A stretch of 64,000 nt of DNA from Deltaproteobacteria bacterium (GCA_021778115.1 JAJYCS010000003.1:13156-77155), one strand, 5' to 3'. Positions 20,221 through 45,513 are shown, counted from the stretch's first letter. The notes: generated from the letters alone by a model not told the origin. Made by a program: numbers and translations.

Positions 20221-20233
20221 ATAAGGTAACCCT

Positions 20234-26895: not shown

Positions 26896-26913
26896 CCTTT
26901 CATACCCGGCGGT

Positions 26914-27411: not shown

Positions 27412-27420
27412 GGCATCACG

Positions 27421-28281: not shown

Positions 28282-28324
28282 GGTCGTCTCCTCCTTTCGG
28301 GATGGCCGAAGCCATCAGCCCTGG

Positions 28325-28627
28325 TTATGGTGCGGTGGTGGTGGCGGTCACGGCGTTCGGACCGGAGCCGTCCATGACACCCCGTCCGTTGGCAGGACGG
28401 GTAGTGGAGCCGTTGGCCGTGACGCCGGTGGTGAGGAAGGTGCCGTCACGGCGCTGGGACCCGGCAGGACGCACCTGGGTTGTTGCGGTGCCGGTTGAGG
28501 GCTGGCTGTGCACCTGGGCACCCTGTCCCCTGCCGGCGCCTGCGCCGCCGCGCGCGAACGATTCGCCGCCAACGGCCAGGATTGCGGTCAATACTGCTGC
28601 GGTTGCCAAAAGATGCGGTCTGTTCAT
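28325..28627 (-). CDS. Small exported Gly/Thr/Arg-rich protein
   Basis: Start re-called at ATG 28627 with AAGGAG RBS; signal peptide ending SFA; low-complexity mature part. Confidence 0.65.
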   Translation of the reverse strand: MNRPHLLATAAVLTAILAVGGESFARGGAGAGRGQGAQVHSQPSTGTATTQVRPAGSQRRDGTFLTTGVTANGSTTRPANGRGVMDGSGPNAVTATTTAP

Positions 28628-28682
28628 CGGTTGTGTCTCCTTATCGGTATGATGGTGAGATGCGCACTCACCCGGCAGGAGG

Positions 28683-28699
28683 TACAGCAACCGTGCCAA
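28683..28699 (-). promoter_or_regulatory. Putative sigma54 promoter
   Basis: TTGGCACGGTTGCTGTA: perfect -24 element, deviant -12 (GT instead of GC). Confidence 0.5.
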
Positions 28700-28772
28700 C
28701 GGTCAGCACAGGTACAACATTATGATATTGTTGCTATAATTTTCAAGCGCCCCCCATACGTGCAATCCCGGC

Positions 28773-28814
28773 GGTGCAAATGCTGCACCGGTGGTGTCGA
28801 TCTTGCACCACCGG
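28773..28814. promoter_or_regulatory. Tandem enhancer-like sites overlapping a hairpin
   Basis: GGTGCA-N5-TGCACC (28773) and GGTGTC-N5-TGCACC (28793), 20 bp apart; 9-bp stem CCGGTGGTG/CACCACCGG at 28788-28814 just after the response regulator stop. Confidence 0.55.
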
Positions 28815-28815
28815 T

Positions 28816-30165
28816 TCACGGCTCCACCAGCCCGTACTCCTTGAGGCGATACTGGAGGGTACGGCGTGAAATACCCAACTTTTCAGCGGTCAGACGTCGA
28901 TTGTTGCCGCAATCGGCCAGGGCCTCCATGATGACGGCCCGTTCCCTCTCCTTCAGACTGAGGGCCTGCTCGTCGTCGATGAACTGCACCGGGGACCGGA
29001 CCGCCTCCGGCAGTTCGGCGGTGGTGATCTCGCCCCTGGCCAGGATGAGCGCCCGCTCCAGCACATTGCGGAGCTCCCGGATATTGCCCGGCCAGCTGTA
29101 GCGGTACAGGGCGGCCAGGGCCGCCGGCGTCACCACCGGGGCTCCTGCGCCGTTGGAAACAGCGGCCCGCTCCAGCAGGTGGGCGACCAAAAGCGGCAGC
29201 CCGTCACGGCGCTCACGCAGGGGGGGGAGATGGAGCGGAAAGACGTTCAGGCGATAGAAGAGATCCTCACGGAAACGGCGCTGCCGCACCTCATCGGCCA
29301 GATCGCGGTTGGTGGCGGCCACCACCCGCACATCGGCCGTCAGTACCCGACTTCCCCCCACCCGCTCGAAGATCCGCTCCTGCAGCACCCGGAGAAATCG
29401 CGACTGCAGCGACAAGGGAAGCTCACCGATCTCGTCCAGAAAGAGGGTGCCGCCGGCGGCCAGTTCGAACTTCCCCTGACGGGCCTGGGTGGCACCGGTA
29501 AAGGCCCCCTTCTCGTGGCCGAACAACTCGCTTTCCAGCAAATTTTCCGGGACCGCAGCGCAGTTCAGGGCCACAAACGGCCCTTTGGCACGGCGACTCG
29601 CCTGGTGTACGGCCTGAGCTGCCAGTTCCTTACCGGTGCCGGATTCTCCGGTGATGAGCACCGTGGCCTCGGTGGGGGCCACCTCATGCAACATCCGGCG
29701 CACCTCCTGCATCACCCCCCCGGCGAACAGCACCTGATCGGGTGGAAGGCCCGACACCGTCCGTTCTCCGGCCGGTACGGCGGCAGACGGTATGGAACCC
29801 GCCAGGGTGCGCCGCACCAACGCCCGGAGCGATTCCGGATCCTTCAGCGGCTTGGTGAGAAAATCCGCCACCCCCTCCTTCATGGCCGCCACCGCCTCTT
29901 CCACCGTTCCGAAGGCGGTGAGCAGGATAAACGGTGTGACGCATCCTGTCTCACGTGAACGACGAAACAGCTCCAGGCCGTTCAAGCCGGGCAGGCGCAA
30001 GTCGGAGAGCACCAGGTCGAAGGACTGACGCTGCAGGGCCATCAGGGCCGCCTTGCCGTCATCCCGGGCGGTCAGCTCATACCCCGCCTCCTCAAGGATA
30101 TCGCTCAACAGGGAGCAAAAGGTGGGGTCATCCTCCACCAGCAGTATCCGGTTACCTGTGCTCAT
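28816..30165 (-). CDS. Sigma54-dependent response regulator (NtrC/ZraR family)
   Basis: REC domain, [22 protein letters not shown], Fis HTH. Confidence 0.94.
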
Positions 30166-31415
30166 CGCCTGCCTTCCTGAGAGAGCGGCAGCTCCAGGGT
30201 GATCTCTGCACCGCCGTTGCCGCCGTTTTCAAGCCGGATGGTGCCACCGCAGGACTCCACCACCTTCCTGCAGATGGCCAGCCCCAGGCCGCTTCCCCTG
30301 GCACGGGTGGTATAAAACGGATCAAAGGCCCGTGTCAAACCCTCCGGCGAAAAACCGCTCCCGTCATCCCGGATCACCACGCGGGCACGGTCCTGTACCG
30401 TGTCCAGCAACACTTGCACCGTCCCCCCTGACGGCATCGCCTGGCGGGCGTTGCCCAAGAGATTGAGCAGTACCTGGCGTAGACGGGCCGGCACACAGGC
30501 CACCTCACGCTCCAGCTCCCCGGAGAGCTGCAGGACAAAGTGCGGAGAGCCGGGAGGGGCGGCGGCGCTCAGGTCCTCCCAGGCCCCCCGCACGAGCCCG
30601 GCAAGCTCGGCGGTCCCGATGGCGGCAGATTCCTGGACGGCATAGGTAAGCAGGTCGTTTACCAGTTCTTCCAGCCGTTCCGATTCCGCGACGATCCGCT
30701 GGGCATAGCGCCGTTCCCGATCACCGACGGGACGCTCCGCCAACAGCTGGGCATACCCCTTGATACCGGCCAGCGGTGTACGCACCTCATGGGCCAGCAC
30801 CGCCCCCAGCTCCCCCAGCCGGGCCAGATGTTCCCGGCGGGCAAGCTCCTCGCGGCGGCGCAGATCACGGCGTTGCAGCCGCAGCGACCAGAGCCCGAAA
30901 CCCCAGGCGGCCACCAGCAGCAGCATCATCATCGCCCCACCGGCCCTGGTCCGGCGCAATATCCGATCCGCCTGCCAGGTATGGAGCGCCAGACGCAGGA
31001 TCAGAGGACCGCCGGCGATATGCAGCTGCTGTTGGAATTCGTAGACCACCTCGCCGGTCCCCAGCCTTATGCGTCCCTCGGTGACCGTGGGAGCCCCCAG
31101 CAGGGCCTGATAACGGCGGTCTTCCAACCGTTCACCGACCAGGTCCGGGTTGGTGTGGAAGAGGATGGTCCCCCGGCGGTCGACAATGCAGAAATAGGCG
31201 ATATCGGGTGATCTGAAATCAGCGAGCAGCTTCAGGGAGGGATCGCGTGAGGCGATGGTTTCGATGGCCTGCCCCAGCGACAGGGCGATGCCGCGCAGAT
31301 AGCCGCGGGTGACCGGTACGGCGCTCCGGCAGTTGATGTAGGCAAACCAGATCAGAAGGGCGCTCAGGAGCAGAGCGCCCAGGAGGATGAGATGTCGTAC
31401 TCCGGGGCGTGACAT
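30162..31415 (-). CDS. Sensor histidine kinase (ZraS-like)
   Basis: Start re-called at ATG 31415; two TMs, periplasmic domain, [15 protein letters not shown]. Confidence 0.9.
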
Positions 31416-31500: not shown

Positions 31501-33279
31501 TCATGCCGGCGCCCCACCGCTGACGCCGGTAGCCCACTGCGCCGTACCGGTTGCTGAGACCGAGAGCCCATGGCGGTTCATCCAGCGCCACAGTGTCGTC
31601 CGATCGACCCCGAGTTCATGGGCGACGGCGTTACGATTCCCCTTAAACCGCTCAAGGAGCGCCATGATGGTCTCGGGTGTGGCGCCGCTGCGGCTGCTGC
31701 CTGCCATGGCAGCGGCTACCCGGTGAGGAACCGTCCCCCCGCGGGGAGGGGTTCTGAAGGCGCCGGGGAGCTGCTCCATGGTGATCTCCGAACCATGACA
31801 CATGATGCTCGCCTGTTCCATAATGTTCAGCAGCTCCCGCACATTACCCGGAAACGGGTAGGTAAAGAACTGCTGCATCACCTCGGCAGCCACCGTGCGG
31901 ATCCGTTTGCCGTAGGCCAGGTTGAACCGCTGCAGCGCCATCTCCACCAGCAAGGGTATATCATCGACCCGCTCCCTCAGTGGCGGGATCTGGAGGGTGA
32001 CGATATTGAGACGGAAGAAGAGATCCTGCCGGAAGCTCCCCTGACGCACCATCTCCGCTAGGTTCCGGTGGGAGGCGGCCACGAACCGTACATCGGCCTT
32101 CACCGGGCTGCGCCCCCCCAGCGGCTGAAACTCCTTGTTCTCCAGGAGACGCAAAAGCTTCACCTGCAGCGTCAGCGGCAGATCACCGATCTCATCGAGG
32201 AAGAAGGTGCCCCCCTGACACTGTTCGATCCGGCCGGGGCGGTTTTCCGCCGCACCGGTAAAGGCCCCCTTGCGTACCCCGAAGATCTCCGACTCCAGCA
32301 GGGTCTCCGGCAACGCGCCGCAGTTGACCGTCACCAGCGGGCCGTTACGCCGACGGCTTAGGTCGTGCAGCGCATGGGCGAACAGCTCCTTGCCGGTGCC
32401 GCTCTCGCCGTACAGAAGCACCGTGGCATCGCTTGCGCCCACATCCTCCATGACGGCGAACAGCTTTCGCATGGCGCTGTTACGGCTCACCAGCCGCCGA
32501 AAGGTATACTTCTCCCTGATCTCCTCCCGCATGTCCACGATGGGGGTCAGGTCCCGCAGGGTCTCCACGCCGCCGATGGCCTTCCCCGAACAGTCGTAGA
32601 GGATGGAGGCACTGGCCGCGATCAGACGTTTACCCCCCCGGCAGTCCGTAAGCTCCAGATCCCGCTGCACGGTCTGACCGGTCGCGACGGCCTCCCGGAT
32701 CGGACAGTTCTGCTGGCAGCTGGTGGTCTTGAACACCTCACTGCAGGGGCGTCCCAGGGCATCCTGATGTGCGATGCCGGTCAACTCCTCGGCGGCCCGG
32801 TTAAAGTTGGTGATCTGCATCCGCTCGTTCACGGTGAACAACCCGTCGGCCACACTGTCGATAATCGAATAAAGCCGCCGAAGACACCGCATTGACTTGA
32901 CCCCGCCGACCAGGACCCCTTCCTTGTTGAACAGCGGCGAGGCCTTGATCAGCACCGGCACGGTTGCCCCCTGACAATCCTGCATGAGCACTTCACGGGT
33001 CACCACCGACCGTTCCCGGCGCCAAATCTCCCGCACCGGACAACCGGCTCCGCACAAGGGGGTAGCGAAGATCTCATGGCACTTCATGCCCAACGCCTCA
33101 TCCCTGCTGACCCCCGACAACAGTTGGGCGGCGTAGTTGTAGGCCACTACGGTCATTTCGGTATCTACGGCGATCACCGCGTCGGACATGTTGTCCAGAA
33201 TCTCGTTATACCATTCTTCTGTGCAAGGTGACTGAAATGCAGGCACATCATCCTCCCTGTTCAGGTCTCGACGCATCAT
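31501..33279 (-). CDS. PAS-PAS sigma54 enhancer-binding protein (Fis HTH), no REC domain
   Basis: Two PAS domains, [32 protein letters not shown]. Confidence 0.92.
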   Translation of the reverse strand: MMRRDLNREDDVPAFQSPCTEEWYNEILDNMSDAVIAVDTEMTVVAYNYAAQLLSGVSRDEALGMKCHEIFATPLCGAGCPVREIWRRERSVVTREVLMQDCQGATVPVLIKASPLFNKEGVLVGGVKSMRCLRRLYSIIDSVADGLFTVNERMQITNFNRAAEELTGIAHQDALGRPCSEVFKTTSCQQNCPIREAVATGQTVQRDLELTDCRGGKRLIAASASILYDCSGKAIGGVETLRDLTPIVDMREEIREKYTFRRLVSRNSAMRKLFAVMEDVGASDATVLLYGESGTGKELFAHALHDLSRRRNGPLVTVNCGALPETLLESEIFGVRKGAFTGAAENRPGRIEQCQGGTFFLDEIGDLPLTLQVKLLRLLENKEFQPLGGRSPVKADVRFVAASHRNLAEMVRQGSFRQDLFFRLNIVTLQIPPLRERVDDIPLLVEMALQRFNLAYGKRIRTVAAEVMQQFFTYPFPGNVRELLNIMEQASIMCHGSEITMEQLPGAFRTPPRGGTVPHRVAAAMAGSSRSGATPETIMALLERFKGNRNAVAHELGVDRTTLWRWMNRHGLSVSATGTAQWATGVSGGAPA

Positions 33280-34286
33280 AGCGTATGACAGCTCTGGCAG
33301 TAGACGTTCAGATCCCCCCGCTCCCGGTTCAGCAGGTTCCGGCTGTCACCGGCGTGGGGGTTATGACAGCCGGCACAGGAGAAGGGGCGATCTTTCTTCA
33401 GCGGGTTCACAGGTCCCTTCACCGGGTGTCCCTTGGCAAAGAAACCGGCGATGACATGGAGACCGCTCTTCTTGTCGTCATGGCAGTTCACGCAGAGGTC
33501 GGTGGGGTGCATCCTGACCAGTGCAGGCCACTCCGCTCCATGGGGGTCGTGGCAGAGGGTACAGTCCCCCATCGCGGTAGGGCCATGATGCACCTTCATC
33601 CCGTTCCACTGCCTCTCCTGGGCGCTGTGACAGAGAAAACAGCCGGTGCGGTCCGGACGGCTGGTATGATACCGCCCCCCCGCACCGCCGACCAGATGAC
33701 AGAGCAGACAGGCGCCGCCAGCGGCCGGGCGATGCAGATAGCGGTTATGCCCCTTGTCGGCATGACAGGGGAGGCAGGGAGAACGCTCCGGCGTGGCCGG
33801 GAAGAGATCCGCAAGGTTCGGCGCCATCCGGTGACAGGGGCTGCAGAACGCCTCAGCGGCAGGCAGATGAAAGGTATAGGGATGGTAGCCCGCAGGAGGC
33901 TCTTGATACGGCTTCAGCAAACGGGAACGCCGGTACACGGTGAGGCCCTCCCTGGCAACCACGGCGCCGCCGCCGGTGGTGGCGGTGAGGGTGATGCTGT
34001 TGAGTCCGGGGGAGAGCGGGACCGCCAGACAGAAGAGCCGCCGCCCCTGCTGTCGCCGCAGGGTGACCTGCGACCGCTCCCTACCTGCAACCGCCAGCAG
34101 AGCGACGCCGCTCCCCGCAACCTCCCCTGCCAGGTGCAGACGATCACCCTCCACGACCCCCTTATCGGCCGGTGTCAACAACCGGATCATCCCCCCCCTG
34201 GCGACGACAGGGGCCAGCAGCACGACGCCGAACAGGACCGTGAGAAACACCGTCAGTGGGAAGCTATGGCGCAACATGCCGTTCAA
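33276..34286 (-). CDS. Octaheme c-type cytochrome with N-terminal Ig-like domain
   Basis: 8 CxxCH motifs; signal peptide; heme-free beta-rich N-terminal region. Confidence 0.88.
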   Translation of the reverse strand: MNGMLRHSFPLTVFLTVLFGVVLLAPVVARGGMIRLLTPADKGVVEGDRLHLAGEVAGSGVALLAVAGRERSQVTLRRQQGRRLFCLAVPLSPGLNSITLTATTGGGAVVAREGLTVYRRSRLLKPYQEPPAGYHPYTFHLPAAEAFCSPCHRMAPNLADLFPATPERSPCLPCHADKGHNRYLHRPAAGGACLLCHLVGGAGGRYHTSRPDRTGCFLCHSAQERQWNGMKVHHGPTAMGDCTLCHDPHGAEWPALVRMHPTDLCVNCHDDKKSGLHVIAGFFAKGHPVKGPVNPLKKDRPFSCAGCHNPHAGDSRNLLNRERGDLNVYCQSCHTL

Positions 34287-35391
34287 CGATCACCTCCAGG
34301 GCTTTCCGATAGGCCGCCGCAGCCGCGGCCGGTTCCCGGCGCGCCTCATACAGCATCCCCTGCTGGAAGAATATCCGGTAGTCGTAGGGACTCAACCGTT
34401 CGGCCCGTTCAAACCACTGCCGCGCCGCGGCCAACTCCCCCTGGCGCCCGGTGACGGCCCCAAGCAGGTAATAGGCCGGCAGATACGCCTCATCGGCGGC
34501 CAGGCAGCGTTGCAAGAGCTGCCGGGCCCCGGCCAGGTCCCCGCGGTCAAGCCGGATCTCCCCCAGGGCGCACAGGGCAACGGCATGTTCCGGTTGCCGC
34601 CTGAGCGCCTCCCCATACTGCCGCTCTGCAGCAGCCTGGTCGTGCTGCCGCGCGTACAGCTCACCCAGACTGAGGTACGGCTGGATGAAGGATGGATCGG
34701 CCGCCTCGGCCCGCTCGAACCACCCCTTCGCCTGGTCGGAGGTCCGTTGGGAACGGAGCGCCGCCACCCCCATGGACCAGAGCCGCAGGGCGCGCTTGTC
34801 TGGCTGCCTGCCCGCCAATGCCACCCCCCTGGCGACCGGTTGCCCCGTTATGGCGCTGACGACCGTACGGCTGAACGCCTCGCTCCCCACCAGGGGAAAC
34901 CCTGATAGTTCAGCCCGGATGATCCCTGTGCCGTCGATGAACACCGTGGTGGGGACCGCAATGACACCGTAGGCGTTGAAGGTGGCAAGCCCCCGGTCAA
35001 GCAGGAGGGGGAAACTCAGCTGCAGCTCCGTAGCGGTGGCCTGCACCGCCCGCAGGGTCCCCTCGGTCACCTCCTGGCGGTCCACATTGATCCCCACCAC
35101 CGACAGCCCCTCCTGCCGGTACCGCCGGTAGAGCCGCTCCATCTCCCGCAGGGCCTTTACGGAGTTCTCCCCCCAGGTGGCCCAGAACAGAAGCAGCGTC
35201 CCCCGCTTCCCGATCAGCCTCCCCAGCTCCGCTGATCCCCCCTGGGAGGCCTGCAGGCTGAAGGGGGGGGCATCCATTCCCACCTCCAGGGAACGGAGGG
35301 CCGAGGAGGAGGCACTGCTCTGCATCAGGAAGAACACGATCCAGAGCGGGATCAACCAGCGGGGACGCCCATGACCGCCGGTACCGTTCAT
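34264..35391 (-). CDS. TlpA/ResA-like thioredoxin fold + TPR, lacking CxxC
   Basis: FWATW-GENS in place of WCxxC; VPTTVFID cis-Pro motif; C-terminal TPRs. Confidence 0.8.
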   Translation of the reverse strand: MNGTGGHGRPRWLIPLWIVFFLMQSSASSSALRSLEVGMDAPPFSLQASQGGSAELGRLIGKRGTLLLFWATWGENSVKALREMERLYRRYRQEGLSVVGINVDRQEVTEGTLRAVQATATELQLSFPLLLDRGLATFNAYGVIAVPTTVFIDGTGIIRAELSGFPLVGSEAFSRTVVSAITGQPVARGVALAGRQPDKRALRLWSMGVAALRSQRTSDQAKGWFERAEAADPSFIQPYLSLGELYARQHDQAAAERQYGEALRRQPEHAVALCALGEIRLDRGDLAGARQLLQRCLAADEAYLPAYYLLGAVTGRQGELAAARQWFERAERLSPYDYRIFFQQGMLYEARREPAAAAAAYRKALEVIVERHVAP

Positions 35392-35891
35392 TGTCCCCAG
35401 TGCCTGCCCAGTTCGTGGGCCTTGATCCCCTGCTTGAAGACCGCCAGGGCCCGGGTGTGATCCCCCCGTTTTTCGTAGATCCTCCCCAGTTCCAGATAGA
35501 TCCTGGCCGGATCGGGGGTGAGGGGAAGCTGCTGGCGCAACAGCTGTTCCGCCTCATCCAGTCTCCCCTGTCGCGCAAAGACGATGGCCCGACCGATCCT
35601 CGCCGCGCTGTTGCCGGCATCAAGCTGCAACGCCTGGTCAAAGGCCGACAGGGCGCCGTTCAGGTTATTGCCGGCCAGCAGCAGATTCCCCTGCTGCACG
35701 CATTGCTTCAGTGAGAACTGCCCTCCACTCACGGGACTGTGCACGCCTGCTCCCTCCTTCCGGTTTGTTTGCGGGGTTGCGACGGCTTTCGCCGCCGGCA
35801 GGGCCGGATCACCCGCCGGCGCCGACAACGGCAGCGCCGTCACCAGCAGCGCCAGCAGCACGCCTGCCCGCCCGATCCTGATCCCGATCAT
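35388..35891 (-). CDS. Exported TPR protein
   Basis: Start re-called at ATG 35891 (ATGA overlap); signal peptide; three TPRs. Confidence 0.8.
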   Translation of the reverse strand: MIGIRIGRAGVLLALLVTALPLSAPAGDPALPAAKAVATPQTNRKEGAGVHSPVSGGQFSLKQCVQQGNLLLAGNNLNGALSAFDQALQLDAGNSAARIGRAIVFARQGRLDEAEQLLRQQLPLTPDPARIYLELGRIYEKRGDHTRALAVFKQGIKAHELGRHWGQ

Positions 35892-37258
35892 CTGTTTTTC
35901 ACCATCTTTGCCCGGTCGTATCTGAACTCCTGATGACAACCGGGCAGACAGGAACCGCCCCCCTTGTTTTTCACCAGCCCCACCGGCAGTTGCCAGGCAC
36001 CGAAGGGGACCGCATCCCGGATATGGTTCGGGTTGTTGGTGGCGTGGGCGTCATGACAGGCGCGACAGGTCCGCCCCTTGGGGGACTTGTTGACATGGAC
36101 GTAGTGCAGGTTCTGATCGCCGTTGCGGAAGCCGGTGAGAGTCATGGTCGTGGGTTCCTTCACCAGGGTGTCGTTGTGGCAGTTAAAGCAGAGCTGATAG
36201 TTCTGCGGGTCGTACTTCGCATAAAACAGGGGGGGATAATAGGCCCGCAGAATCCTGAAAAAGTTGGAACCATGGGTGTTGTGGCAGCCGGAGCAGTCCT
36301 TCTCCTTGATCGGCCCGTGGGTGTTACGGTTCGTGGCAAAAAGCTCCTTCATGTTGGCAGTCTTCTGTTCCCCATGGCTGTACTGGCGGTCATGACAGGA
36401 GAGGCAGAGGTCCATGGGGGCCATGGCCAGCTGCTTGGGAAAGAACGAGGTGTGGGGGTTGTGACAGGCAAGGCAACCGGTGGACAGCTCCAGACCACCG
36501 TGTTTCACCGTCACGGCGGCAATCTCCTTCTGTTTGTCCTTATGGCAGCTGAAACAGACCCCCTTGGTCCGCTCACCAATCAGGGTGTACTGGTAATCAC
36601 TGCTGTGGGGGTTATGGCACTGCACGCAGCCGCCCTTCATCGGGGCATGGATATGGGGACGGGTGGCAAACTCAGCCTGTTTATCCTTATGACAACCGTA
36701 GCAGGCATCGCTCCCCTTGCCGGCCAGCAGCTTGGGGAACTGCCCCGAATGGTGGGCATGACAGGCGCTGCAGTCACCAACCGCCACCGGACCGTGCTTC
36801 ACCTTACCGTTGATGATGGAGCGGGGATGGCATTTGAAGCAGAGCTCCTGTCCCCCCCCCCGCAGTTGAAACTTGTTGCCGGACTGGTGCGGACTGTGAC
36901 AGCCGGTGCAGTTCCCCTCCTTCACCGGCTGGTGCACCACCGGCCCCAACTGCAGCTTGTCGTGGCAGGCATAACAGAGGGAGGCCACATCAGTGATCGG
37001 CGTGAAGGCGTGGCGCCCCGGCGTTGCCTGCTTGTGGCAGAAGACGCAGTTACCGGTTGCCACCGGTCCATGCACATACTGATCCTTCCCCATGGTGGGG
37101 TGGCAACCGCTGCTGACACACCCCTGCCCCGCCTTCAGGGCAAAGTCGGCAGCCGAAAGCTCCGGCGCCTCCCCGACCATACCCCAGACAAGGGCCACCA
37201 GCACCCCCATCAGACCTGCCCGGAATCGCCCAAACCGACACAGACTCGCCTCAGCCAT
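35888..37258 (-). CDS. 15-heme periplasmic c-type cytochrome
   Basis: 13 CxxCH plus CVSSGCH and CLPGCH; recurring HxPV...CxxCHxPH spacing. Confidence 0.9.
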   Translation of the reverse strand: MAEASLCRFGRFRAGLMGVLVALVWGMVGEAPELSAADFALKAGQGCVSSGCHPTMGKDQYVHGPVATGNCVFCHKQATPGRHAFTPITDVASLCYACHDKLQLGPVVHQPVKEGNCTGCHSPHQSGNKFQLRGGGQELCFKCHPRSIINGKVKHGPVAVGDCSACHAHHSGQFPKLLAGKGSDACYGCHKDKQAEFATRPHIHAPMKGGCVQCHNPHSSDYQYTLIGERTKGVCFSCHKDKQKEIAAVTVKHGGLELSTGCLACHNPHTSFFPKQLAMAPMDLCLSCHDRQYSHGEQKTANMKELFATNRNTHGPIKEKDCSGCHNTHGSNFFRILRAYYPPLFYAKYDPQNYQLCFNCHNDTLVKEPTTMTLTGFRNGDQNLHYVHVNKSPKGRTCRACHDAHATNNPNHIRDAVPFGAWQLPVGLVKNKGGGSCLPGCHQEFRYDRAKMVKNR

Positions 37259-37313
37259 ACGCTCCCTCCCTTGATTGGTTGTACCTGCTCATCGCCCTCA
37301 CACACAGCCGGTC

Positions 37314-38996
37314 CTACAGTCCATGGATCTCACCATGGCAGACCAGGACGCAGGAGTTTTTGTTGACCACCGGCGGGAGATACTGAATCGGCTTGCTGCC
37401 GTTTTGGGAGACCACCCGCAGGTCGAAATTGATCATCCCCAGGTTGTACGGATTGCCGTGGGGGTCGTGACAGTAGACGCACCGGTCCTTGAGCGGATGG
37501 GTGCTGACATGGGTCTTGTGCTGCTTGAACTTGGTGTAGGTGCCGAACAGGGTAGTCACGTTATGGCAGCCGAAGCAGAGGTCGTAATCGGCCGCGTTGT
37601 AGGTGGTGGCCGGCAGCTCCGAGGTGACAAAATTACGGACCAGGATATGGGGGTAGATGGAACCGTGGGATCCTCGTATCCCGCTGGAATCGCTGCCGTG
37701 ACAATCGGTGCAATAGATGACGCTCCCCTTCACCAGCGGGGGGATCAGCATGTTATCGGATATCTTGTTAAGCGGTCCCATCACCGGATGAAAGGAGGGA
37801 TTGGCCGGATTGAACTTGATCCGGTTGTCCGTGATGGTGGTCACCCTGGGGATGGCGGTGGTGGGCATGACGTTATTGAGCAGGGACCCATGGCACTTGA
37901 AACAGACCTCATACTCATACGTTGCGGCTACAAGATAGGTATTGGCCGCGGTCACCGCCGGCACCCCCTGCAGCCTGCCGGGCACCAGCGGGGCCGGATA
38001 GAGGACGCTGTTGGCCTGGTGGGGGTTGTGGCAGTCAACACACTCCACGTGCTTGGTGACCCCGCCAGCGTAGTTCTCAGCCGGATCATGGATGCCGGTG
38101 TAGGAGGAGACCGGGTGACGGTACGGCTTATTCAGGTCGGTAAGGATGTTCTTCGCCGCCACATTGCCGTCATGGCAGACGAGGCAGTTGGTCTCCTCCA
38201 CGCTGTAGTTCAGAAGCCGCTGGGGACCGCCTGCCCCATGGGGACGATGACAGCTGCCGCACGCGTTCTCCGCCACGGTGGTATAGCTGGATCGGGGCCA
38301 GGGGTCCGGGGCTATCCCGTTCCAGCTCTTGGTGGAGACGGCATGGCTGCTGGCGCCCCAGTTGGTCTTCTGATGACAGCCGACACAGAGGGCGCCGCTC
38401 AGATTGGAGATGACCAGAAACTTGCCATACTGGTCGTTGTGGGGGTCATGGCAGGCGGTACACTGCATCTCCCCGGCACTGTCGAGCCGGATGGCCGCCG
38501 GAAGGGCGGCAGCGCTCTGCAACTGGCTGCCCGGCATGGAGGCCGCCGTGCCGTAGACGAAGGAGACCGGATGATCGTCCGCCAGATTGGTCCCCAGGTT
38601 ACTGCTGCGACCGGCCAGGGTGGCGGTAAATGGCAGCACCGTCCCCTGGGAGAGCACCGCCCCCAGGGCGATGGTGCCGTCGTGGCAGGAGAGACAGAGC
38701 CGTGATGCGCCGGTGGGTTGCCCCACGCTGCTCCTGAGGGTCGAGCTGAGATAGGGAGTATAGGGGTCACCCGGGTCCTGTCGATTCCAGAGATAGGGGA
38801 CGTCGGACCGAGCGTTGTGCGGGGTATGACAGAAGATGCAGATCTGGCTCTCCGTGGTGGCCTTTATGGCGCCGGGACCGCTCACCGAGAGGTTGTGCAG
38901 GCTGGTGACGATGCTCCCCCCCCAGGCCGCCCAAGGGGCGCCGAGCAGGACACAACAGGCCGCCACGGCTGCCCGTATCGATGCAACGCCGTTCAT
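37314..38996 (-). CDS. 12-heme cytochrome with N-terminal OmcE-like tetraheme module
   Basis: 11 CxxCH plus CVLVCH; the first four hemes align by eye to the 44667-45263 protein. Confidence 0.88.
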   Translation of the reverse strand: MNGVASIRAAVAACCVLLGAPWAAWGGSIVTSLHNLSVSGPGAIKATTESQICIFCHTPHNARSDVPYLWNRQDPGDPYTPYLSSTLRSSVGQPTGASRLCLSCHDGTIALGAVLSQGTVLPFTATLAGRSSNLGTNLADDHPVSFVYGTAASMPGSQLQSAAALPAAIRLDSAGEMQCTACHDPHNDQYGKFLVISNLSGALCVGCHQKTNWGASSHAVSTKSWNGIAPDPWPRSSYTTVAENACGSCHRPHGAGGPQRLLNYSVEETNCLVCHDGNVAAKNILTDLNKPYRHPVSSYTGIHDPAENYAGGVTKHVECVDCHNPHQANSVLYPAPLVPGRLQGVPAVTAANTYLVAATYEYEVCFKCHGSLLNNVMPTTAIPRVTTITDNRIKFNPANPSFHPVMGPLNKISDNMLIPPLVKGSVIYCTDCHGSDSSGIRGSHGSIYPHILVRNFVTSELPATTYNAADYDLCFGCHNVTTLFGTYTKFKQHKTHVSTHPLKDRCVYCHDPHGNPYNLGMINFDLRVVSQNGSKPIQYLPPVVNKNSCVLVCHGEIHGL

Positions 38997-40033
38997 CGCC
39001 CCCCCACCTTCAGGTACTGGAAGAGCTGCACCCGGTTGTTATAGGTATCCGCCACGTAGATCCGGTCGGTGGCGTCGATGCTGATCCCGGTGGGCATCCA
39101 GAATTCCCCCGCCTGCCGTCCATGGCCGCCGAATGCCAGCAGAAGCCGCCCTGCCCGGTCAAAGATCTGCACGTTGTCGAACAGGGCATCAACCACGTAG
39201 ATGTTATCGTCGCTATCCACCGCTATCCCCCGTGGCCGGCTGAAGGATCCCGGGGTATCGCCAGCCGTGCCGAAGCTGCGGAGAAAGCTGCCGTCGGGTC
39301 CAAAGAGCTGTACCCTGAAGTTCAGGGTATCGACGACCAGAATCTCGCCTTGGCTGGTGATTGCGAGATCGGTCGGGTAATTGAACTGCCCTTCGCCGTT
39401 GCCGCGGCTCCCGAAACGCCCCTTGAAGGCGAGGGTTACCCGGTCATAGCGAAAGACGGCCGCCTTGCGGCTGTCCACCACCAGGAGCTCGTCGGTCCGC
39501 CGGTTCAGGGCGATACCGGTGGGACGCTCAAGCGCCCCCCTGCCCAGTTCGCCGGGCCCGCCCCCGGCAAGGGACAGTATCCTGACGCCGCAGGCAGCGG
39601 CATCGCTCACATAGAGACGCCCGGCCCGACTGTCCACCGCCAGCCGCACCGCCACCTGCAGCGGATGGTCGTCCTCGGGGAAGATCCTGAACCGCTGCCG
39701 GGTGCGGTCATAGAGTTTGACCGTCTGGGAGGCCGCATCAATCACATACACCGTGCCGCCGGCGCCGACGCCGATGCCGGTGGGCTGCACCAGGCGACGA
39801 TCCACCCCGCCCGTCACCACCTCCCAGATCCTCGCCAGCAGCCCGTTCCGTATCCCCAGGTCGTCAGGCAGCGCAAAGCTGCCGAGATACCGTATCCTCA
39901 CCGGTTCGGCACCGGCAGGCCAGACCGGCCCCTCCGGCAGCGGTCCGCTCAGGTGGCGCTCTGCGGCGCAGCCGATGCACAGGAACAGCAGCATCGCCGT
40001 CGGCAGGTATCGACGCCAGGGCCGCGCCATCAC
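38993..40033 (-). CDS. NHL-repeat beta-propeller lipoprotein
   Basis: Lipobox CIGC; repeats F..P.GIAVD...IYVVD..NxRVQ.F. Confidence 0.9.
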   Translation of the reverse strand: MMARPWRRYLPTAMLLFLCIGCAAERHLSGPLPEGPVWPAGAEPVRIRYLGSFALPDDLGIRNGLLARIWEVVTGGVDRRLVQPTGIGVGAGGTVYVIDAASQTVKLYDRTRQRFRIFPEDDHPLQVAVRLAVDSRAGRLYVSDAAACGVRILSLAGGGPGELGRGALERPTGIALNRRTDELLVVDSRKAAVFRYDRVTLAFKGRFGSRGNGEGQFNYPTDLAITSQGEILVVDTLNFRVQLFGPDGSFLRSFGTAGDTPGSFSRPRGIAVDSDDNIYVVDALFDNVQIFDRAGRLLLAFGGHGRQAGEFWMPTGISIDATDRIYVADTYNNRVQLFQYLKVGGR

Positions 40034-42702
40034 CAGACCGCCCTGCTGAGTTCAAGCACCACCGCCTGACTGGTCCGGTCGTACCGGTTGAACAGATCGT
40101 TTTGTTGCGCGTACTTGTAGCTGAGACGGAGGGTCCAGAGGCGGTACCCGGCCTCGAGGGCGACCTTGCCGCCGCGGTTCAGACTCCCTTCGAGGTCGCC
40201 GTCGATCCGTTCCAGATACCCTTCGAGGGCGCCGTTTAACCAGGTAAAAGGGAACCAGGTAAGCCCCAGCACGCCGCCGTAGCTCTTCTTCAGATCAACG
40301 ATGCTCCGGTAACGGGTCTCGCCGTAATAGCCCCGCATGTTCCAGCGGAACCAGTTGCCGTACTGCAGCCGCAGGCTCTGATAGGCCTCCCAGCGCCCAT
40401 AGGAGAGGTCGGAGTTACTGGTGGTATCCTCATATATGCAGCCGCTCTCCCCCCATCCTTCGTCGATCCTGATGCTGGCCAGATGCATCCGGCTGTTGTT
40501 CAGCAGATCGGGGGATGGGCCGCCCAGAAGACGCTGATCCGACTGCAGGTAACGGTAGTTGAGGAACAGGGTGCGGAACAGCTCAACCGATGCCCCGTAC
40601 TGCTGGCTCACCACCAGGTCGTCATAACCGGCGTTTCGGGTATACCGGTAACTGACCAGTATCAACTGGCCGTCACCGATACTCCCCAGAGGCAGCCGAC
40701 TGATCCGGATCGATCGGCCGATCAGGTCGGCCCGGTAGTCCAGATCCTGGACGTAGATCACCGATCCGGCGCTGTTGGTGATCACGATGCTCCCGTCGCT
40801 TACGTCGCTCTGGGTAAGAAAGGTCTCGGCGCCGTTGCGCAGGGTGTGCGGTTCATTGGTGATCTGCACCGACCCTCGGGAGCCGCTCCGGGTGGTGTAG
40901 ACCGGCGTCACCCCGGCGCTCAGCCCCACCACCCCCCATCCCCCCAGGGCACGCTGATAATCGGTCTGCAGCACTCCCCCCGCCGACTGCTGACGTCCGC
41001 CGTCTGCCTCGTTGCTGGAACCGGTGACACCGGCCATGGTGGTGAGATTTTCGTATAGCCGGTGGGTCAGCCGGGCATCCAGCGAATGCCAGCTGCTGGT
41101 GGAACTGCCGGCGTTCACCCGACGGAAGATATACTGCCAGCTTGAGCGGAGATTCGGACGGTGCTGCCAGGCGAGAAGCTCGTTCAGGAACAGGGAATCG
41201 TTCTGCAGGGCGGAGCCGCTCTGCCCCAGGTACTGAAGATTGCTGGAGAGGGTGACCCGCTCGTCCTTCGTCACCGGATACCGGTTGTTCAAGACGCTGG
41301 TTATGGTCCTGATCTCGCCGGAAATGCCGTTTGTGGACTGGTTGTTCAGGCTGTAGGAGAGGGAGAGACTACTCTCGCCGGTCAGGTTGTTCCGGTTACG
41401 GGTCAGCAGATGCAGCTCCCGCCAGTCGCTGCTGGCGCCGTAGTACCCTTCCTGGTCCGACCGGCTGCTGCTGAGCCCCACGCTGGTGGGCAGCAGCTCA
41501 TATTTCAGCGTAAGGTCTGCCCCGTAACTTTCGCTGGTGGTGCTAGTCACCCCGGTAAAGATCGCCCAGGAACGGTTCTCCAGGTGCTGGCCGAATGCGG
41601 TGAGGGTATAGGGTTTCTGCCCCAGCAGGGTGACATTTGCCTGGTAGTTGGGACTGAATGCGTCGCTTGAGCCGTTACTGCTGCCGGTCAGGGCTGCGTT
41701 GCTCCTGGTGATACTCTGGGCAAACTCGGGGGAAAACTTGAGCCTGAACTGCAACAGGGCCGGATGGTACAGGTACCCCTTGCTTTCAAGGTCAAGCCGT
41801 TCGGTGACGATGTGGGAACGGTCTAACTGCTTGCCCCCGGTGACGTTCCGGTCATCCTGGTTGAATTCATACCTGACCTGGGCCCCCACCGATGGGGGAT
41901 CAATGGCGATACGATGCCGTGTTCCCGCCTTCTCTTCGTTTTTGCTCCACCGGTACCCTCGCCGGGGCGATTCATCCGCTCCCGCCTCCATGAGGGGAGA
42001 TACGCCGGCGGTAGCCTGCCAGTTCCGCTGCAGATCGCCTGCGCCGTACATCAGGCGGGCCCGCTGCACCGTCTCCGCCGGGGTAAGGGGGCGTATCTGC
42101 GCTAGGGTGTCCAGGGCGTTCACCGCATCGGCAGGGCGGTTCAGGGATTCCGCAAGCCGGGCCTGTTCCTTCAACAGGGCGGCACGCTCCCCAAAACGGA
42201 ACCCCGAGGAGAGCAACTGATAGGCCTCGTTGAGGCTCCCCAGCCGTTCACTCACCAGCAGATACTCCTTAAGCAGCTCCGAATCGCCATCACCGCTCAT
42301 CAGGATGGTCTCAAGCAGAGAACGCCGCACCGGCAGTTCGTTCATGCTCCGGGAGAGACGCAACGCCTCCTGTCGGGCCGCGCCATCCCCCTGTTTCACC
42401 AGGTAGACCCAGTAGTTCAGGGCTGTTGCGGGTTTCCCGGCCAGTTCTGCACAGCGGGCTGCACGGCGACGCCACTCCAGATCGGCGGGGTGGGCCTCGA
42501 TCGCCTGTTCAGCCATCTGAAGCGCCGCATCATATCGGTTTTTCGCCATGTTGCTGATATACGCCATACCGTAAAGTTCATCCTCAAAGAGATTTCGTGC
42601 GTCATCAACGCTTGTGGGCCCCTGCTCAACACCATGGGCCGGGCCGTGCACCACGGAAAGACCTGCACACATCGCCAACAGCAGTAACCGCCGTCTCGCC
42701 AT
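40030..42702 (-). CDS. TPR + large outer membrane beta-barrel (porin of a porin-cytochrome conduit)
   Basis: 890 aa; signal peptide, helical TPR-like N-terminal ~230 aa, long alternating beta-strand region, terminal aromatic residue (LELSRAVW). Confidence 0.75.
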   Translation of the reverse strand: MARRRLLLLAMCAGLSVVHGPAHGVEQGPTSVDDARNLFEDELYGMAYISNMAKNRYDAALQMAEQAIEAHPADLEWRRRAARCAELAGKPATALNYWVYLVKQGDGAARQEALRLSRSMNELPVRRSLLETILMSGDGDSELLKEYLLVSERLGSLNEAYQLLSSGFRFGERAALLKEQARLAESLNRPADAVNALDTLAQIRPLTPAETVQRARLMYGAGDLQRNWQATAGVSPLMEAGADESPRRGYRWSKNEEKAGTRHRIAIDPPSVGAQVRYEFNQDDRNVTGGKQLDRSHIVTERLDLESKGYLYHPALLQFRLKFSPEFAQSITRSNAALTGSSNGSSDAFSPNYQANVTLLGQKPYTLTAFGQHLENRSWAIFTGVTSTTSESYGADLTLKYELLPTSVGLSSSRSDQEGYYGASSDWRELHLLTRNRNNLTGESSLSLSYSLNNQSTNGISGEIRTITSVLNNRYPVTKDERVTLSSNLQYLGQSGSALQNDSLFLNELLAWQHRPNLRSSWQYIFRRVNAGSSTSSWHSLDARLTHRLYENLTTMAGVTGSSNEADGGRQQSAGGVLQTDYQRALGGWGVVGLSAGVTPVYTTRSGSRGSVQITNEPHTLRNGAETFLTQSDVSDGSIVITNSAGSVIYVQDLDYRADLIGRSIRISRLPLGSIGDGQLILVSYRYTRNAGYDDLVVSQQYGASVELFRTLFLNYRYLQSDQRLLGGPSPDLLNNSRMHLASIRIDEGWGESGCIYEDTTSNSDLSYGRWEAYQSLRLQYGNWFRWNMRGYYGETRYRSIVDLKKSYGGVLGLTWFPFTWLNGALEGYLERIDGDLEGSLNRGGKVALEAGYRLWTLRLSYKYAQQNDLFNRYDRTSQAVVLELSRAVW

Positions 42703-42706
42703 CCCG

Positions 42707-43465
42707 TTACCGCCTCTCCGCTACCGGTGAGGCGGTCTCGCGATACTCACTGATCAGCAGGGAACGCCCTTTCCCCAGATGGGGATTATGGCAGGAGAGA
42801 CAGGGCTCCGGGCCACGGGGATGGGGAATCAACGCGCCAATGGCCTCCGGGCTGTGACAGGAGCGGCAGAGCTGGTCAGCCGGCTTACGGAGGATCCCTG
42901 AAATCCTGCTCTGGTGAGGATCATGGCAGGCCAAACAGTCCCCCTTTGCCACCGGGTTGTGCAGCCAGAGCCGCTCCTTGATGGCCCGTATGGCGGTCTT
43001 ATCAGCATGACAGCCCAGACAGAGCCGTTCCTTGGCCCCACACAACGGCCCCGGCATACCGCCGCCGGTATAGAACACCCGTTCCCCTTCTGGTGTGCCG
43101 CCACCCTTTCCCTGCTGAAACAGGAACTGGTTGTTTCCGCCATGGCAGGCGATACACTCCCCCTGCAGCCAGGGGCGGTGGGAGTAATACCGGATAACGA
43201 CCGGAACCGCTTTTCCTCCTGTCTGGGACCGTTGTGCCGGACTGCCTGACAGGGGGAGCTGCCGTTGCCCCGCCGGTTGTCTGGCACCTACCGGGGGAGC
43301 TTCTTTTTCCTGGACCTCCAGGGGAGGGACACCGGTAAAGAAGAAGGTCAGCACGGTGTGACGGCTTTGGACGGAACAGCCAGCGAGCAGCAGCCCCACC
43401 GCAATACTCCACGCGAAAACTCCCTGATGCCAGCCACTCTGCATTCTCCGCGTCACCCCCTCCAT
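42707..43465 (-). CDS. Pentaheme c-type cytochrome lipoprotein
   Basis: Lipobox LLAGC; 5 CxxCH motifs; start may be a few codons later (MQSGW). Confidence 0.85.
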   Translation of the reverse strand: MEGVTRRMQSGWHQGVFAWSIAVGLLLAGCSVQSRHTVLTFFFTGVPPLEVQEKEAPPVGARQPAGQRQLPLSGSPAQRSQTGGKAVPVVIRYYSHRPWLQGECIACHGGNNQFLFQQGKGGGTPEGERVFYTGGGMPGPLCGAKERLCLGCHADKTAIRAIKERLWLHNPVAKGDCLACHDPHQSRISGILRKPADQLCRSCHSPEAIGALIPHPRGPEPCLSCHNPHLGKGRSLLISEYRETASPVAERR

Positions 43466-43483
43466 CGGCCGCCTCCCCGCCGG

Positions 43484-44554
43484 CTAGGGGGTCCAGTCGC
43501 CAAAGCCATAGACGTTCAGCTTGTTGACACCGGCCATGTTGCAGACATAGACCAGATACTTAAGCTTGAAGCGGGGATCGGCAAAACGCTGAAAAAATGG
43601 GACGTTGTGGTAATCGATGGCAATCCCTGCGGGCAGGTACATGCTGCCGGGGGTATCCCCGGCACCGCCGAAGAACAACAGCAGTTTCCCCTCAGGGTTG
43701 AATATCTGGACATTCTCAAAGGCGGCATCCACCAGGTAGAGATTGTTGTCCCCATCAACGGCCATACCCTTTGGCCTGGCCAGACTCCCCAGGGTATTGC
43801 CGGCAGTCCCGATCTTCTGCAGAAACCTCCCGTCAGGAGCGAACTTTTGCACCCTGAAGTTGAAGGCATCGTTCACCAGCAGGTTACCGACCCGATCAAC
43901 GGTGATATGGGTGGGACGGTTTAGCTCCCCCTCCTTGTCCCCCCCCTTGCCGATGGTCAGCAGCTGTTTGCCGGTCAGGCGGTCAAACACGACAACCCGA
44001 TGCTTCATCATGTCGCAGACATAGACCCGGTCGCCGTACACCGCCACATCGCAGGGGCGTTCCAGCTGGGCGGGATCTCCCAGGGTTCCGATGAAACGCC
44101 TGTCCGGCCCGAAGACCACCACCTGCCGCCGTTTCAGATCGGCGATGTAGAGGGTTCCGTCGTCGCTCACCCAGATGCCGGAGGGCACCTGCAGCGCCCC
44201 CCGTCCGCCGGCACGCAGTGGGGAGATGCGCCGTTTCTGCAGATCGATCTCCAAGATGTCGTTGGAGACCCGATCGGTGAGATAGATACGCCCCTGGACC
44301 CCATGAACCGCGTAGGGCCGCCCCATGGTCCTGTCGGTCTCCCGCCCCCCCAGCAGAAAGTCATCCAGCTTGGAACCGGCATCGACCAGATCATCAACCG
44401 ACGAGATGGAGGTGAGAAACTGCAGGCGGGGCTTTTCAGGCAGGGGGGGATACAGCACGGCCTGCTGCTGCGGGGTGGTGGTGGCGCATCCCTGGAACAA
44501 CAGCATGAACAGCGGCATCAGCAGGATCCGGCACAGCATGACGACAATGGGCAT
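43484..44554 (-). CDS. NHL-repeat beta-propeller lipoprotein
   Basis: Start re-called at ATG 44554; lipobox FQGC; NHL repeats. Confidence 0.88.
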   Translation of the reverse strand: MPIVVMLCRILLMPLFMLLFQGCATTTPQQQAVLYPPLPEKPRLQFLTSISSVDDLVDAGSKLDDFLLGGRETDRTMGRPYAVHGVQGRIYLTDRVSNDILEIDLQKRRISPLRAGGRGALQVPSGIWVSDDGTLYIADLKRRQVVVFGPDRRFIGTLGDPAQLERPCDVAVYGDRVYVCDMMKHRVVVFDRLTGKQLLTIGKGGDKEGELNRPTHITVDRVGNLLVNDAFNFRVQKFAPDGRFLQKIGTAGNTLGSLARPKGMAVDGDNNLYLVDAAFENVQIFNPEGKLLLFFGGAGDTPGSMYLPAGIAIDYHNVPFFQRFADPRFKLKYLVYVCNMAGVNKLNVYGFGDWTP

Positions 44555-44666
44555 TACAGATCTCTCCCTTCGGTCGCAGGGCGCACGCATCACGGCAACT
44601 GCCGGGGCGACGGCCGCCATGGGTCGCCGGATCCCGGCTCGTTTGCCGCCTGCGGTGCAGGACGGG

Positions 44667-45263
44667 TTACTTCAGATGACAGGTGAGACAGAGCGCCGAA
44701 CCGGTGTTGGCCTTGTTCAGCATCTTGTCCAGGTTCAGCTTGTTGTGCACGTCATGGCAGGAGGAACACTCGAATTTGCCGCTGTTCAGCCACCCCGCCG
44801 GCAGGGTGGCGGGATCGGCCAGTTCGCCATCGGCTGTCTGCAACGTGCTGTCGTAGGTAAAGGAGACCGGGTGACTCTTTTTCAGATCGGTCCCTAGATT
44901 ACCGGCCGTACTGATCATGGTGGTGCCGGTATTGGTGCCGTAGGCATCAAGCGCCACGGTGCCGTCATGGCAGGAGAGGCAGAGCTTGGAGACCCCGGCC
45001 GGCTGGACGATGCTGCCTTTGCCGTTAAACGTGGGACTGTCGTACAGCGTGTAGGTGGCGGTAGTCAGCTTGTGGTTCCAGAGGGGGGCATCAGTGGTGC
45101 TGGTGTCGGCCTTGTGCGGTGTGTGACAGACCACACAGATCTGCGCATCGGTGCCGGTCAGGGCGCTCAAGTCGTGCTTTGATGACTTCACAGCGGCCTG
45201 GGCAAGAGAGGCAAGACCGACAGCGGCAAACAGGGCGACCAGGGGCAGGGCAATCCGTTTCAT
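44667..45263 (-). CDS. omcE: OmcE-like tetraheme outer-surface cytochrome
   Basis: Start ATG 45263 with AAGGAG RBS; KHDLS..QICVVCHTPH..LWN..LY..CLSCHDG..NLGTDL..HPVSF..ECSSCHDVH..LCLTCH, matching the OmcE motif order as recalled. Confidence 0.8.
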   Translation of the reverse strand: MKRIALPLVALFAAVGLASLAQAAVKSSKHDLSALTGTDAQICVVCHTPHKADTSTTDAPLWNHKLTTATYTLYDSPTFNGKGSIVQPAGVSKLCLSCHDGTVALDAYGTNTGTTMISTAGNLGTDLKKSHPVSFTYDSTLQTADGELADPATLPAGWLNSGKFECSSCHDVHNKLNLDKMLNKANTGSALCLTCHLK

Positions 45264-45395
45264 GATGTTCTCCTTTGTCTTTCGGGTCTCGTTTCCCGTC
45301 GTTTCCAATCGCGCCTACTGAATTTATGCAAAGACGCAGATATATAAAAAATAATATAAATGATTTCAGCAAGTTAACACATTGTGCGGGATATC

Positions 45396-45412
45396 ATCAG
45401 ATTCCGTGCCAA
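45396..45412 (-). promoter_or_regulatory. Putative sigma54 promoter of the cytochrome operon
   Basis: TTGGCACGGAATCTGAT: perfect -24 element, deviant -12 (GA). Confidence 0.5.
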
Positions 45413-45478
45413 AAAATAGATTCTTTGTTATTACAAGATGTTAATGCTTGGGCAGGGGGGATGCTGCAACAGCAGACA

Positions 45479-45513
45479 GTGCAAATCCTGCACTACCTGT
45501 GCAGGATTTGCAC
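45479..45513. promoter_or_regulatory. Perfect 15-bp inverted repeat made of two GTGCA-N5-TGCAC sites (enhancer/UAS)
   Basis: GTGCAAATCCTGCAC-TACCT-GTGCAGGATTTGCAC; sites 20 bp apart, 70-100 bp upstream of the -24 element. Confidence 0.7.

Follow-up and report, generated by a model that had tools for sequence, protein, structure and literature searches.

Which regulator switches on the nanowire cytochrome gene omcE? To our knowledge, the switching of nanowire cytochrome genes is poorly understood, and no regulator has been assigned to omcE. The stretch of DNA analysed here (64,000 nucleotides, "the window") encodes an OmcE-family cytochrome. Upstream of its gene lies a pair of palindromes with a counterpart about 17 kb away, next to the gene of an NtrC-family response regulator. 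The unit at omcE is called A and the one at the regulator gene B. Our reading, to which we give a probability of about 0.7, is that A and B are RpoN-dependent promoters sharing one type of enhancer, which would be read by this response regulator. Within this reading, the sequence comparisons strongly support a shared enhancer serving two sigma-54-type promoters, both with a good -24 and a -12 without C.

Sites and promoters at the two ends of the omcE cluster

A sequence-only reading had described the two units as a two-locus sigma-54 regulon. The shared enhancer held in the genome comparison, and the separate loci did not: A and B mark either end of a single co-directional cluster, which continues unbroken on the minus strand from the omcE operon through a PAS-domain sigma-54 activator ("PAS activator"), a histidine kinase and the response regulator to a module of exported proteins (Table 1). 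The translated OmcE-family gene had a signal peptide and matched PDB entries 9YUQ (E 8e-26) and 7TFS (E 1e-22). The gene order of the cluster was NHL, cytochrome, 890-aa TPR protein, NHL, two large multihaem cytochromes, TPR, AhpC/TSA-TPR and cytochrome. The response regulator had the domain architecture of a bEBP (Response_reg 7-116, Sigma54_activat 151-311, HTH_8 404-444), and the GAFTGA motif was intact in both activators.

The kinase ORF as listed has 469 aa from 31571 and overlaps the PAS activator gene. Kinases of relatives have 414-421 aa, and the true start is probably the ATG of MSRPGV... near 31415. Directly upstream of this start is a sigma-70-like TTGACC-N16-TAGTAT (31450-31423), and therefore the kinase-regulator pair probably keeps a sigma-70 promoter of its own. 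For the B operon proteins, no family was assigned by comparison with Pfam and NCBIfam; the third gene of the relatives' operon matched Phenol_MetA_deg. The small target protein was Gly-rich, with RDG[ST]G repeats. Elsewhere in the window, at 19716-22280 on the plus strand, the gene of a small Met/Gly-rich periplasmic protein that looks Spy/CpxP/ZraP-like precedes those of an OmpR-type regulator and a HAMP histidine kinase, and the three may form a separate envelope or metal stress module.

Table 1 Features of the omcE cluster and its two enhancer-promoter units, in window coordinates.
Feature	Position	Strand	Remarks
UAS-A distal site, GTGCAGGATTTGCAC (+ strand letters)	45499..45513	-	Exact palindrome, PWM 21.1
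UAS-A proximal site, GTGCAAATCCTGCAC	45479..45493	-	Start 82 bp upstream of the -24 TGG
Weak IHF-like box (putative), minus strand TAACATCTTGTAAT	45430..45443	.	Between UAS-A and promoter A; conserved block
Promoter A, sigma-54 type, TTGGCACGGAATCTGAT	45396..45412	-	-24 GG; -12 is TGA, without C
OmcE-family tetrahaem cytochrome	44667..45263	-	First gene 3' of promoter A; ATG at 45263
Rest of omcE cluster	33276..44620	-	Tightly spaced, co-directional; syntenic in G015, G039, G069
PAS-PAS-AAA+(GAFTGA)-HTH_8 sigma-54 activator	31501..33279	-	Pfam
Sensor histidine kinase	30162..31415	-	Weak periplasmic sCache-like region, HisKA, HATPase_c (Pfam)
NtrC-family response regulator, REC-AAA+(GAFTGA)-HTH_8	28816..30165	-	Pfam; orthologue of GSU0470
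UAS-B distal site, GTGTCGATCTTGCAC	28794..28808	-	Degenerate, PWM 15.5; 2 mismatches in left half
UAS-B proximal site, GTGCAAATGCTGCAC	28774..28788	-	Exact palindrome; top PWM match in genome; 90 bp upstream of the -24 TGG
IHF-like box, minus strand TATCATAATGTTG	28715..28727	-	12/13 matches to WATCARNNNNTTR
Promoter B, sigma-54 type, TTGGCACGGTTGCTGTA	28683..28699	-	-12 is TGT, without C; 75-109 bp from palindromes
Stem-loop GGUGAG-UGCGCAU-CUCACC	28654..28672	-	At predicted 5' end of B transcript
B operon	26017..28627	-	Four exported proteins (translations)
B operon gene 1, small Gly-rich secreted protein, GSU0469-like	28325-28627	-	Homology
B operon gene 2, extra 286-aa lipoprotein	27421-28281	-	Absent from the operon of relatives and G. 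sulfurreducens, which has three genes (GSU0469-0467 type)
B operon gene 3, 165-aa secreted protein	26914-27411	-	
B operon gene 4, 292-aa probable outer-membrane barrel	26017-26895	-	

Site A reads GTGCAAATCCTGCAC-tacct-GTGCAGGATTTGCAC (45479-45513). Both palindromes are exact GTGCA-N5-TGCAC with a spacing of 20 bp, and the two 15-mers are exact reverse complements of each other, forming a 35-bp palindrome capable of folding into a hairpin. The pair, its spacing and the perfect 15-bp inverted repeat are as the sequence-only reading gave them, and so, closely, are the distances to the promoters: it placed the pairs 70-100 bp (A) and 76-112 bp (B) upstream, and we measured 67-101 bp from TTGGCACGGAATCTGAT and 75-109 bp from TTGGCACGGTTGCTGTA. 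It had also described the same motif pair at B. There the 20-bp spacing recurred and the pair was imperfect, the distal GTGTCGATCTTGCAC being degenerate. The first site of UAS-B starts 8 bp past the stop codon of the response-regulator gene. The consensus of the enhancer is 19 bp long, TGGTGCA-N5-TGCACCA, with two sites 20-22 bp apart.

Both promoters fire leftward, with predicted transcription starts near 45385, giving omcE a 5' UTR of ~122 nt, and near 28672. The -24 is TTGGCACG at both, and its TGG and A were invariant in 19 B and nine A orthologues. The canonical GC at -12 (TTGCW, 10 bp after GG) was absent from A and B: the T and G of the -12 were invariant, and the C was replaced by A in promoter A and by T in promoter B. 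This confirmed the perfect -24 and deviant CTG-type -12 proposed earlier for both promoters. Among ~39 promoters of this enhancer family, just two had the -12 C, and the others read TGT, TGG or TGA. Canonical TGGCAC-N5-TTGC promoters occurred elsewhere in the same genome, which also encodes RpoN (Sigma54_DBD at G000:C94:2451-2927, E 2e-65). The published RpoN promoter consensus of G. sulfurreducens is TTGGCACGGTTTTTGCT (PMC2725144). Reading the -12 of promoter B as a TTGC three bases too close was rejected, as that TTGC was not conserved in the orthologues. A search of 26-46 kb for TGGYAY-N5-NTG on the minus strand gave, besides the A and B promoters, a single match at 27701, within the lipoprotein gene of the B operon.

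Between UAS-B and its -24 lies a match to the IHF consensus WATCARNNNNTTR, kept as ATATCAGnTnGTTA with an invariant GTT in 19 genomes. An alternative reading of this box is a sigma-70-like TTGAAA-N16-CATAAT (28746-28719), which overlaps it. At A, we infer an IHF-like box at 45430-45443, with reserve because the conserved match to the consensus is partial and inverted; the TAACA in this block was invariant across the A-type alignment. At the predicted start of the B transcript, the pairing of the 5' stem was kept by compensatory changes in 15 genus genomes (CGAG/CUCG, CGGG/CCCG, GUGAG/CUCAC), and the stem-loop may be an mRNA-stabilising 5' hairpin. Within the omcE 5' UTR (45264-45385), 3' of promoter A, an AT-rich block (ATCATTnATATnTTTATnTATATATC ... 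CAAATAATCGCATT) was common to two genera. This block might act as an additional promoter, of sigma-70 type, or as an RNA element of the leader. An Rfam scan of 26-46 kb of the window, this leader block included, found no known RNA.

Site A lies in a divergent intergenic region, ~70 bp from a plus strand gene, where a hydrogenase-like operon starts at 45584. Near the start of this operon and beyond UAS-A, at 45536-45568, we observed GTGCAA-N21-TTGCAA, and the word CAGGTAG from the centre of site A recurred there.

The genome of the window (G000) comprises 2.29 Mb and is 99% complete. The sequence-only reading had proposed scanning it for GTGCA-N5-TGCAC pairs. The exact motif occurred three times in the whole genome, always at A or B. 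Base composition alone would give about 2.7 occurrences, and therefore the clustering, not the count, is the signal. No second pair with at most two mismatches per site came near A or B anywhere in the genome, in which TTGGCACG occurred 46 times on both strands. A PWM was built from 36 B-orthologue sites of 18 other genomes, leaving out the window's genome. Its three top matches in the window's genome scored 22.1 (proximal B site), 21.1 and 20.9 (both A sites), followed by a match of 17.9. The control maxima were 17.2 in the reversed genome and 19.1-20.3 in block shuffles. Two weaker matches (C32:330 and C105:1974) were rejected as regulon members, since the closest TGGCAC elements do not lie on the side where a promoter would be expected.

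Conservation of the two units

Each of the 30 relatives searched had an orthologue of the regulator (59-74% identity), and an exact palindrome stood directly 3' of the gene in 15 of 20 loci. We aligned the B units of 19 genomes from four families. Two GGTGCA..TGCA sites, the IHF-like box, the -24/-12, the 5' stem-loop and the start of the Gly-rich gene were all kept, with a promoter consensus of TTGGCAYGGTTGCTGTAA in which TGG, A and TG were invariant. The distal site was the weaker one in most orthologues too. A pattern search for paired sites in the 28 genus genomes gave 18 matches (reversed control, 0), and every match checked had TGGYAY-N5-NTG 99-113 bp downstream of the pair start.

UASs are usually paired dyads 70-150 bp upstream of the -24 and on a fixed helical face. 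In this family, the two sites were 20-23 bp apart and the distances from the proximal site to the -24 clustered at 68-69, 78-82 and 89-92 bp, about one helical turn per step; two genus genomes had longer gaps of 181 and 288 bp. The B architecture tracked the GSU0470-type regulator gene over at least four Geobacterales families, UAS and activator gene being inherited together. In G030, the genome of G. sulfurreducens PCA or of a strain almost identical to it (omcE ORF <=3 bp from the published GSU0618 coordinates), the order was GSU0471 (kinase), GSU0470 (regulator), promoter, GSU0469, GSU0468, GSU0467 and the peroxidase gene macA (GSU0466). Additional paired sites with sigma-54-type promoters were seen in two genus genomes, G012 (C217, L040 3222-3380) and G011 (C14, L030). 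The pair in G012 precedes, as its apparent target, a lone gene for a 52-aa secreted Thr/Gly-rich peptide, and the contig of G011 ends ahead of the gene.

B appears to be the ancestral, widely conserved target of the GSU0470-type regulator family. The idea that the enhancer architecture of omcE is repeated at B was thus half right: the enhancer type is shared, and neither unit need be seen as the other's duplicate, B being no copy of A's. B would be the ancestral unit, and A is the conserved omcE promoter.

The omcE cluster was found in only three of the 28 genus genomes (G000, G015 and G039). In each of them it was inserted, PAS activator included, directly upstream of the kinase-regulator pair, and each had the site pair 20 bp apart together with TTTGGYAYGnATTnTGAT. 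Pair and promoter were the sole conserved island in the otherwise diverged DNA upstream of omcE. The PWM scores of the G039 sites were just 14.5 and 14.9. The same pair recurred in a sister genus (g9): each of the six complete omcE orthologues there (59-70% identity) had it, spaced 20-21 bp and located 79-80 bp upstream of TGGCAC-N5-NTG, and upstream of these genes, too, pair and promoter formed the sole conserved island; a seventh genome, with contig-end fragments only, was left out. The flanks of the A sites (AGTGCA..TGCACT) were closer to the A-type of g9 than to the B-type GGTGCA..TGCACC. Upstream of omcE in G. sulfurreducens we found no GTGCA-N5-TGCAC pair; this region has TTGGCGTGCTGGTTGCA, with a canonical -12.

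The perfect complementarity of the 15-bp arms was restricted to G000, and G015 and g9 kept the contact bases GTGCA/TGCA, which argues for a protein site and not a hairpin. That site A is a structural palindrome (a cruciform, a terminator or a mobile repeat) resembling B by chance is therefore very improbable, even though the perfectly complementary 15-mers of G000 could form a 35-nt hairpin. The N5 spacers were not complementary between the arms in G015 and all g9 genomes, so the long hairpin is specific to G000. The site has no T-run and lies in a divergent intergenic region, without a transcript to terminate; it had no further copies in the genome and no match in Rfam.

A protein site might still belong to another protein. 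The palindromes could be operators of a repressor or of a regulator of the hydrogenase-like operon, with transcription by sigma-70 and TTGGCAC unused. The non-canonical -12, the position of site A in the divergent region, the sigma-70-like element over the B IHF-like box and the room for a sigma-70 promoter in the conserved AT-rich block fit this explanation. We consider it improbable, though a stronger candidate than the hairpin. The neighbours upstream of the UAS are co-directional, unrelated genes in G015 (tRNA_edit, DUF815 and GNAT) and an RluA-like gene in g9, and therefore the pair, which travels with omcE, belongs to omcE and not to the operon at 45584. Further points against foreign operators are that TGG..A...TG was invariant at a fixed, helically phased distance in ~39 promoters, that the sites always adjoined a sigma-54 activator gene, and that GSU0468 responds to RpoN overexpression (PMC2725144).

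The candidate reader of the sites

Two sigma-54 activators are encoded between A and B, and the sequence-only reading had named both as candidate readers. The response regulator kept this place, as the motif follows its orthologues, and is the likely reader of UAS-A and UAS-B. Its HTH (GIS[RK]...) was conserved from the window's genus through GSU0470. The PAS activator lost its place: it is unlikely to read GTGCA-N5-TGCAC, because its recognition helix DRTTLWRWMNRHG (HTH ELGVDRTTLWRWMNRHGL / ELGVDRTTLWRWMNRHG) differs from that of the regulator and because it is absent where the motif persists. The B site was present without a PAS activator nearby in G003 and G. sulfurreducens, and the A pair persisted in the g9 omcE clusters, which lack the activator; only in the window's genus was it part of the cluster.

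Control might nevertheless be split, with the regulator reading B only and the PAS activator driving A through the GTGCA pair or another site. In each of the genus's three cluster-bearing genomes the activator is part of the omcE cluster, its GAFTGA is intact, and no other sigma-54-type promoter is near it, the sole further TGGYAY-N5-NTG at 26-46 kb on the minus strand being the intragenic one at 27701. Inserts of ~100 bp (G015) and ~200 bp (G039) between UAS and promoter could hold other sites. Besides the unlike helix, three observations make split control unlikely, if less so than foreign operators. In six g9 genomes, the A-type pair was kept at omcE although the cluster contains, instead of a PAS activator, a paralogue of the regulator with a QYRLKE helix. 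The PWM trained on B sites alone selected the A sites among the best of the genome. A comparison of 9-mers (<=1 mismatch) across the three genomes revealed no further conserved motif in the DNA preceding omcE. The PAS activator may add a second input to the cluster, probably a separate one with a different DNA site.

Two PAS-activator paralogues in G000 (C22:32159-33832 and C89:333-1751, ~61-62% identity) had the same ELGV[DE]RTTLWRWM helix, and both adjoined further clusters of multihaem or porin-cytochrome type, as if a family of PAS-bEBPs were dedicated to cytochrome operons. A motif could not be derived from the paralogues' upstream regions, which had no clear sigma-54 promoter.

For the response regulator as reader of both units, the g9 genomes add a qualification. 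There, omcE is preceded by its own kinase, a paralogous regulator (53-55% identical, helix GISLRT[ML]QYRLKELG) and an RluA-type pseudouridine synthase gene (e.g. G069:C1:1549000-1556000). In a maximum-likelihood tree, the window's regulator fell inside the B-type clade of its genus (support 100/100), and the omcE-linked regulators of g9 grouped apart from it, in a paralogous clade within this family. Therefore the omcE enhancer may have evolved for a different member of the family, and the affinity of the B-type regulator for A is a prediction. G000 has a single member of this regulator family, its next best regulator being 47% identical. The simplest reading is that in the window's genus one B-type regulator serves both promoters.

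The proposed switch would work as follows. The histidine kinase (30162-~31415) would phosphorylate the response regulator (28816-30165), which would assemble on the paired enhancer sites. A DNA bend at the IHF-like box, clear at B and weak at A, would bring it to the RpoN-holoenzyme held at TTGGCAC-N5-NTG, and ATP hydrolysis would open the promoter. B would then drive the small Gly-rich secreted protein and envelope proteins (GSU0469-0467 in G. sulfurreducens), and A the OmcE-family nanowire cytochrome cluster. What sequence and comparison show directly is the motifs, their restriction to A and B within the genome, their conservation and fixed phasing, and their inheritance together with the regulator gene; from these we infer the binding by the regulator, the dependence on RpoN, the signal, and any read-through from A into the regulator genes.

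A more tentative proposal concerns the promoters. GSU0470-family activators could conceivably serve a distinct subclass of sigma-54 promoters that systematically avoids the -12 C. About 37 of 39 promoters from at least four families lack it, in genomes that also have canonical TTGC promoters, and the distances of the enhancer step by about one helical turn. If true, an activator family would be paired mechanistically with a promoter type, for example one with a weakened -12 fork-junction lock. This would also explain how the regulon, including the capture of the OmcE nanowire operon, escaped standard RpoN promoter scans. The regularity with which the -12 C has been lost makes these promoters a small but clean set of natural data on how sigma-54 promoters vary.

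Relation to known systems

GSU0470 and GSU0471 have been called ZraSR homologues and are uncharacterised (PMC10599522); in biofilms of the gsu1771 and csrA mutants, the expression of both was raised (PMC10599522, PMC11934962). In G. sulfurreducens overexpressing RpoN, GSU0468 was 3.2-fold and macA 2-fold up (PMC2725144 supplements). A PromScan RpoN site was listed for omcE, and GSU0469 and GSU0470 were absent from these 2009 promoter lists (PMC2725144 supplements). The expression of GSU0469 was altered in ihf mutants (PMC7962754), and GSU0468 is among the cobalt-responsive genes (PMC7726332).

Our analysis names a two-component system as a candidate omcE regulator and provides an enhancer consensus and promoter coordinates. 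The mechanism is ordinary, a standard NtrC-type enhancer on RpoN promoters, and the wiring is new. GSU0470/GSU0471 gain a predicted direct target, the GSU0469-0467 operon beside macA. Its predicted promoter would account for GSU0468 being RpoN-responsive without a listed promoter in the 2009 study (PMC2725144).

In Geobacter, BccR-cbcBA resembles the present system in having a sigma-54-dependent regulator adjoining a respiratory cytochrome operon (bioRxiv 10.1101/2021.04.15.440034). Unlike here, BccR is divergently transcribed, and the gene set is different. The identification of locus B with BccR/cbcBA was rejected: the genes at B are other than cbcBA, and BccR and its operon are divergent.

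The best NCBIfam matches of the regulator were AtoC, NtrC and ZraR, all below cut-off. It scored 459 bits against 714 for the AtoC equivalog (PRK11361) and 388 against 760 for ZraR (PRK10365), and the kinase was below the ZraS equivalog cut-off. The regulator shares superfamily and architecture with AtoC and ZraR and is a member of neither equivalog. Used as query against a collection of genome contigs, it matched only generic bEBPs, at 39-49% identity. AtoSC/atoDAEB of E. coli is similar in that AtoC was the best match (459 bits) and binds two inverted 20-bp sites with TGCA...TGCAC (PMC3118216), as site A consists of two inverted 15-mers. The published motif GCkATrCrrnnATTTrCwCA holds the TGCA...TGCAC half-sites (PMC3118216). 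Counted from it, the TGCA repeats of the AtoC sites are 10 bp apart, compared with 9 bp here. The targets also differ, fatty-acid catabolism there and envelope proteins and cytochromes here.

In NtrC (NRI) enhancers such as that of glnAp2, too, dimer sites stand in tandem ahead of the -24/-12, at a distance of about two helical turns from each other. The NtrC consensus TGCACCA-N3-TGGTGCA uses the same heptamer words, TGGTGCA and TGCACCA. The half-sites are everted here, however (TGGTGCA-N5-TGCACCA vs TGCACCA-N3-TGGTGCA), the recognition helix differs, and there is no link to nitrogen genes.

ZraSR-zraP of E. coli shares a periplasmic-sensor kinase, an NtrC-family regulator, a sigma-54 promoter and an adjoining gene for a small periplasmic protein. 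In contrast to the divergent zraP, the target here is co-directional and downstream of the regulator. The small target protein also differs, being Gly-rich with RDG[ST]G repeats and outside Pfam and NCBIfam families, and in this lineage a cytochrome nanowire operon appears to have joined the regulon.
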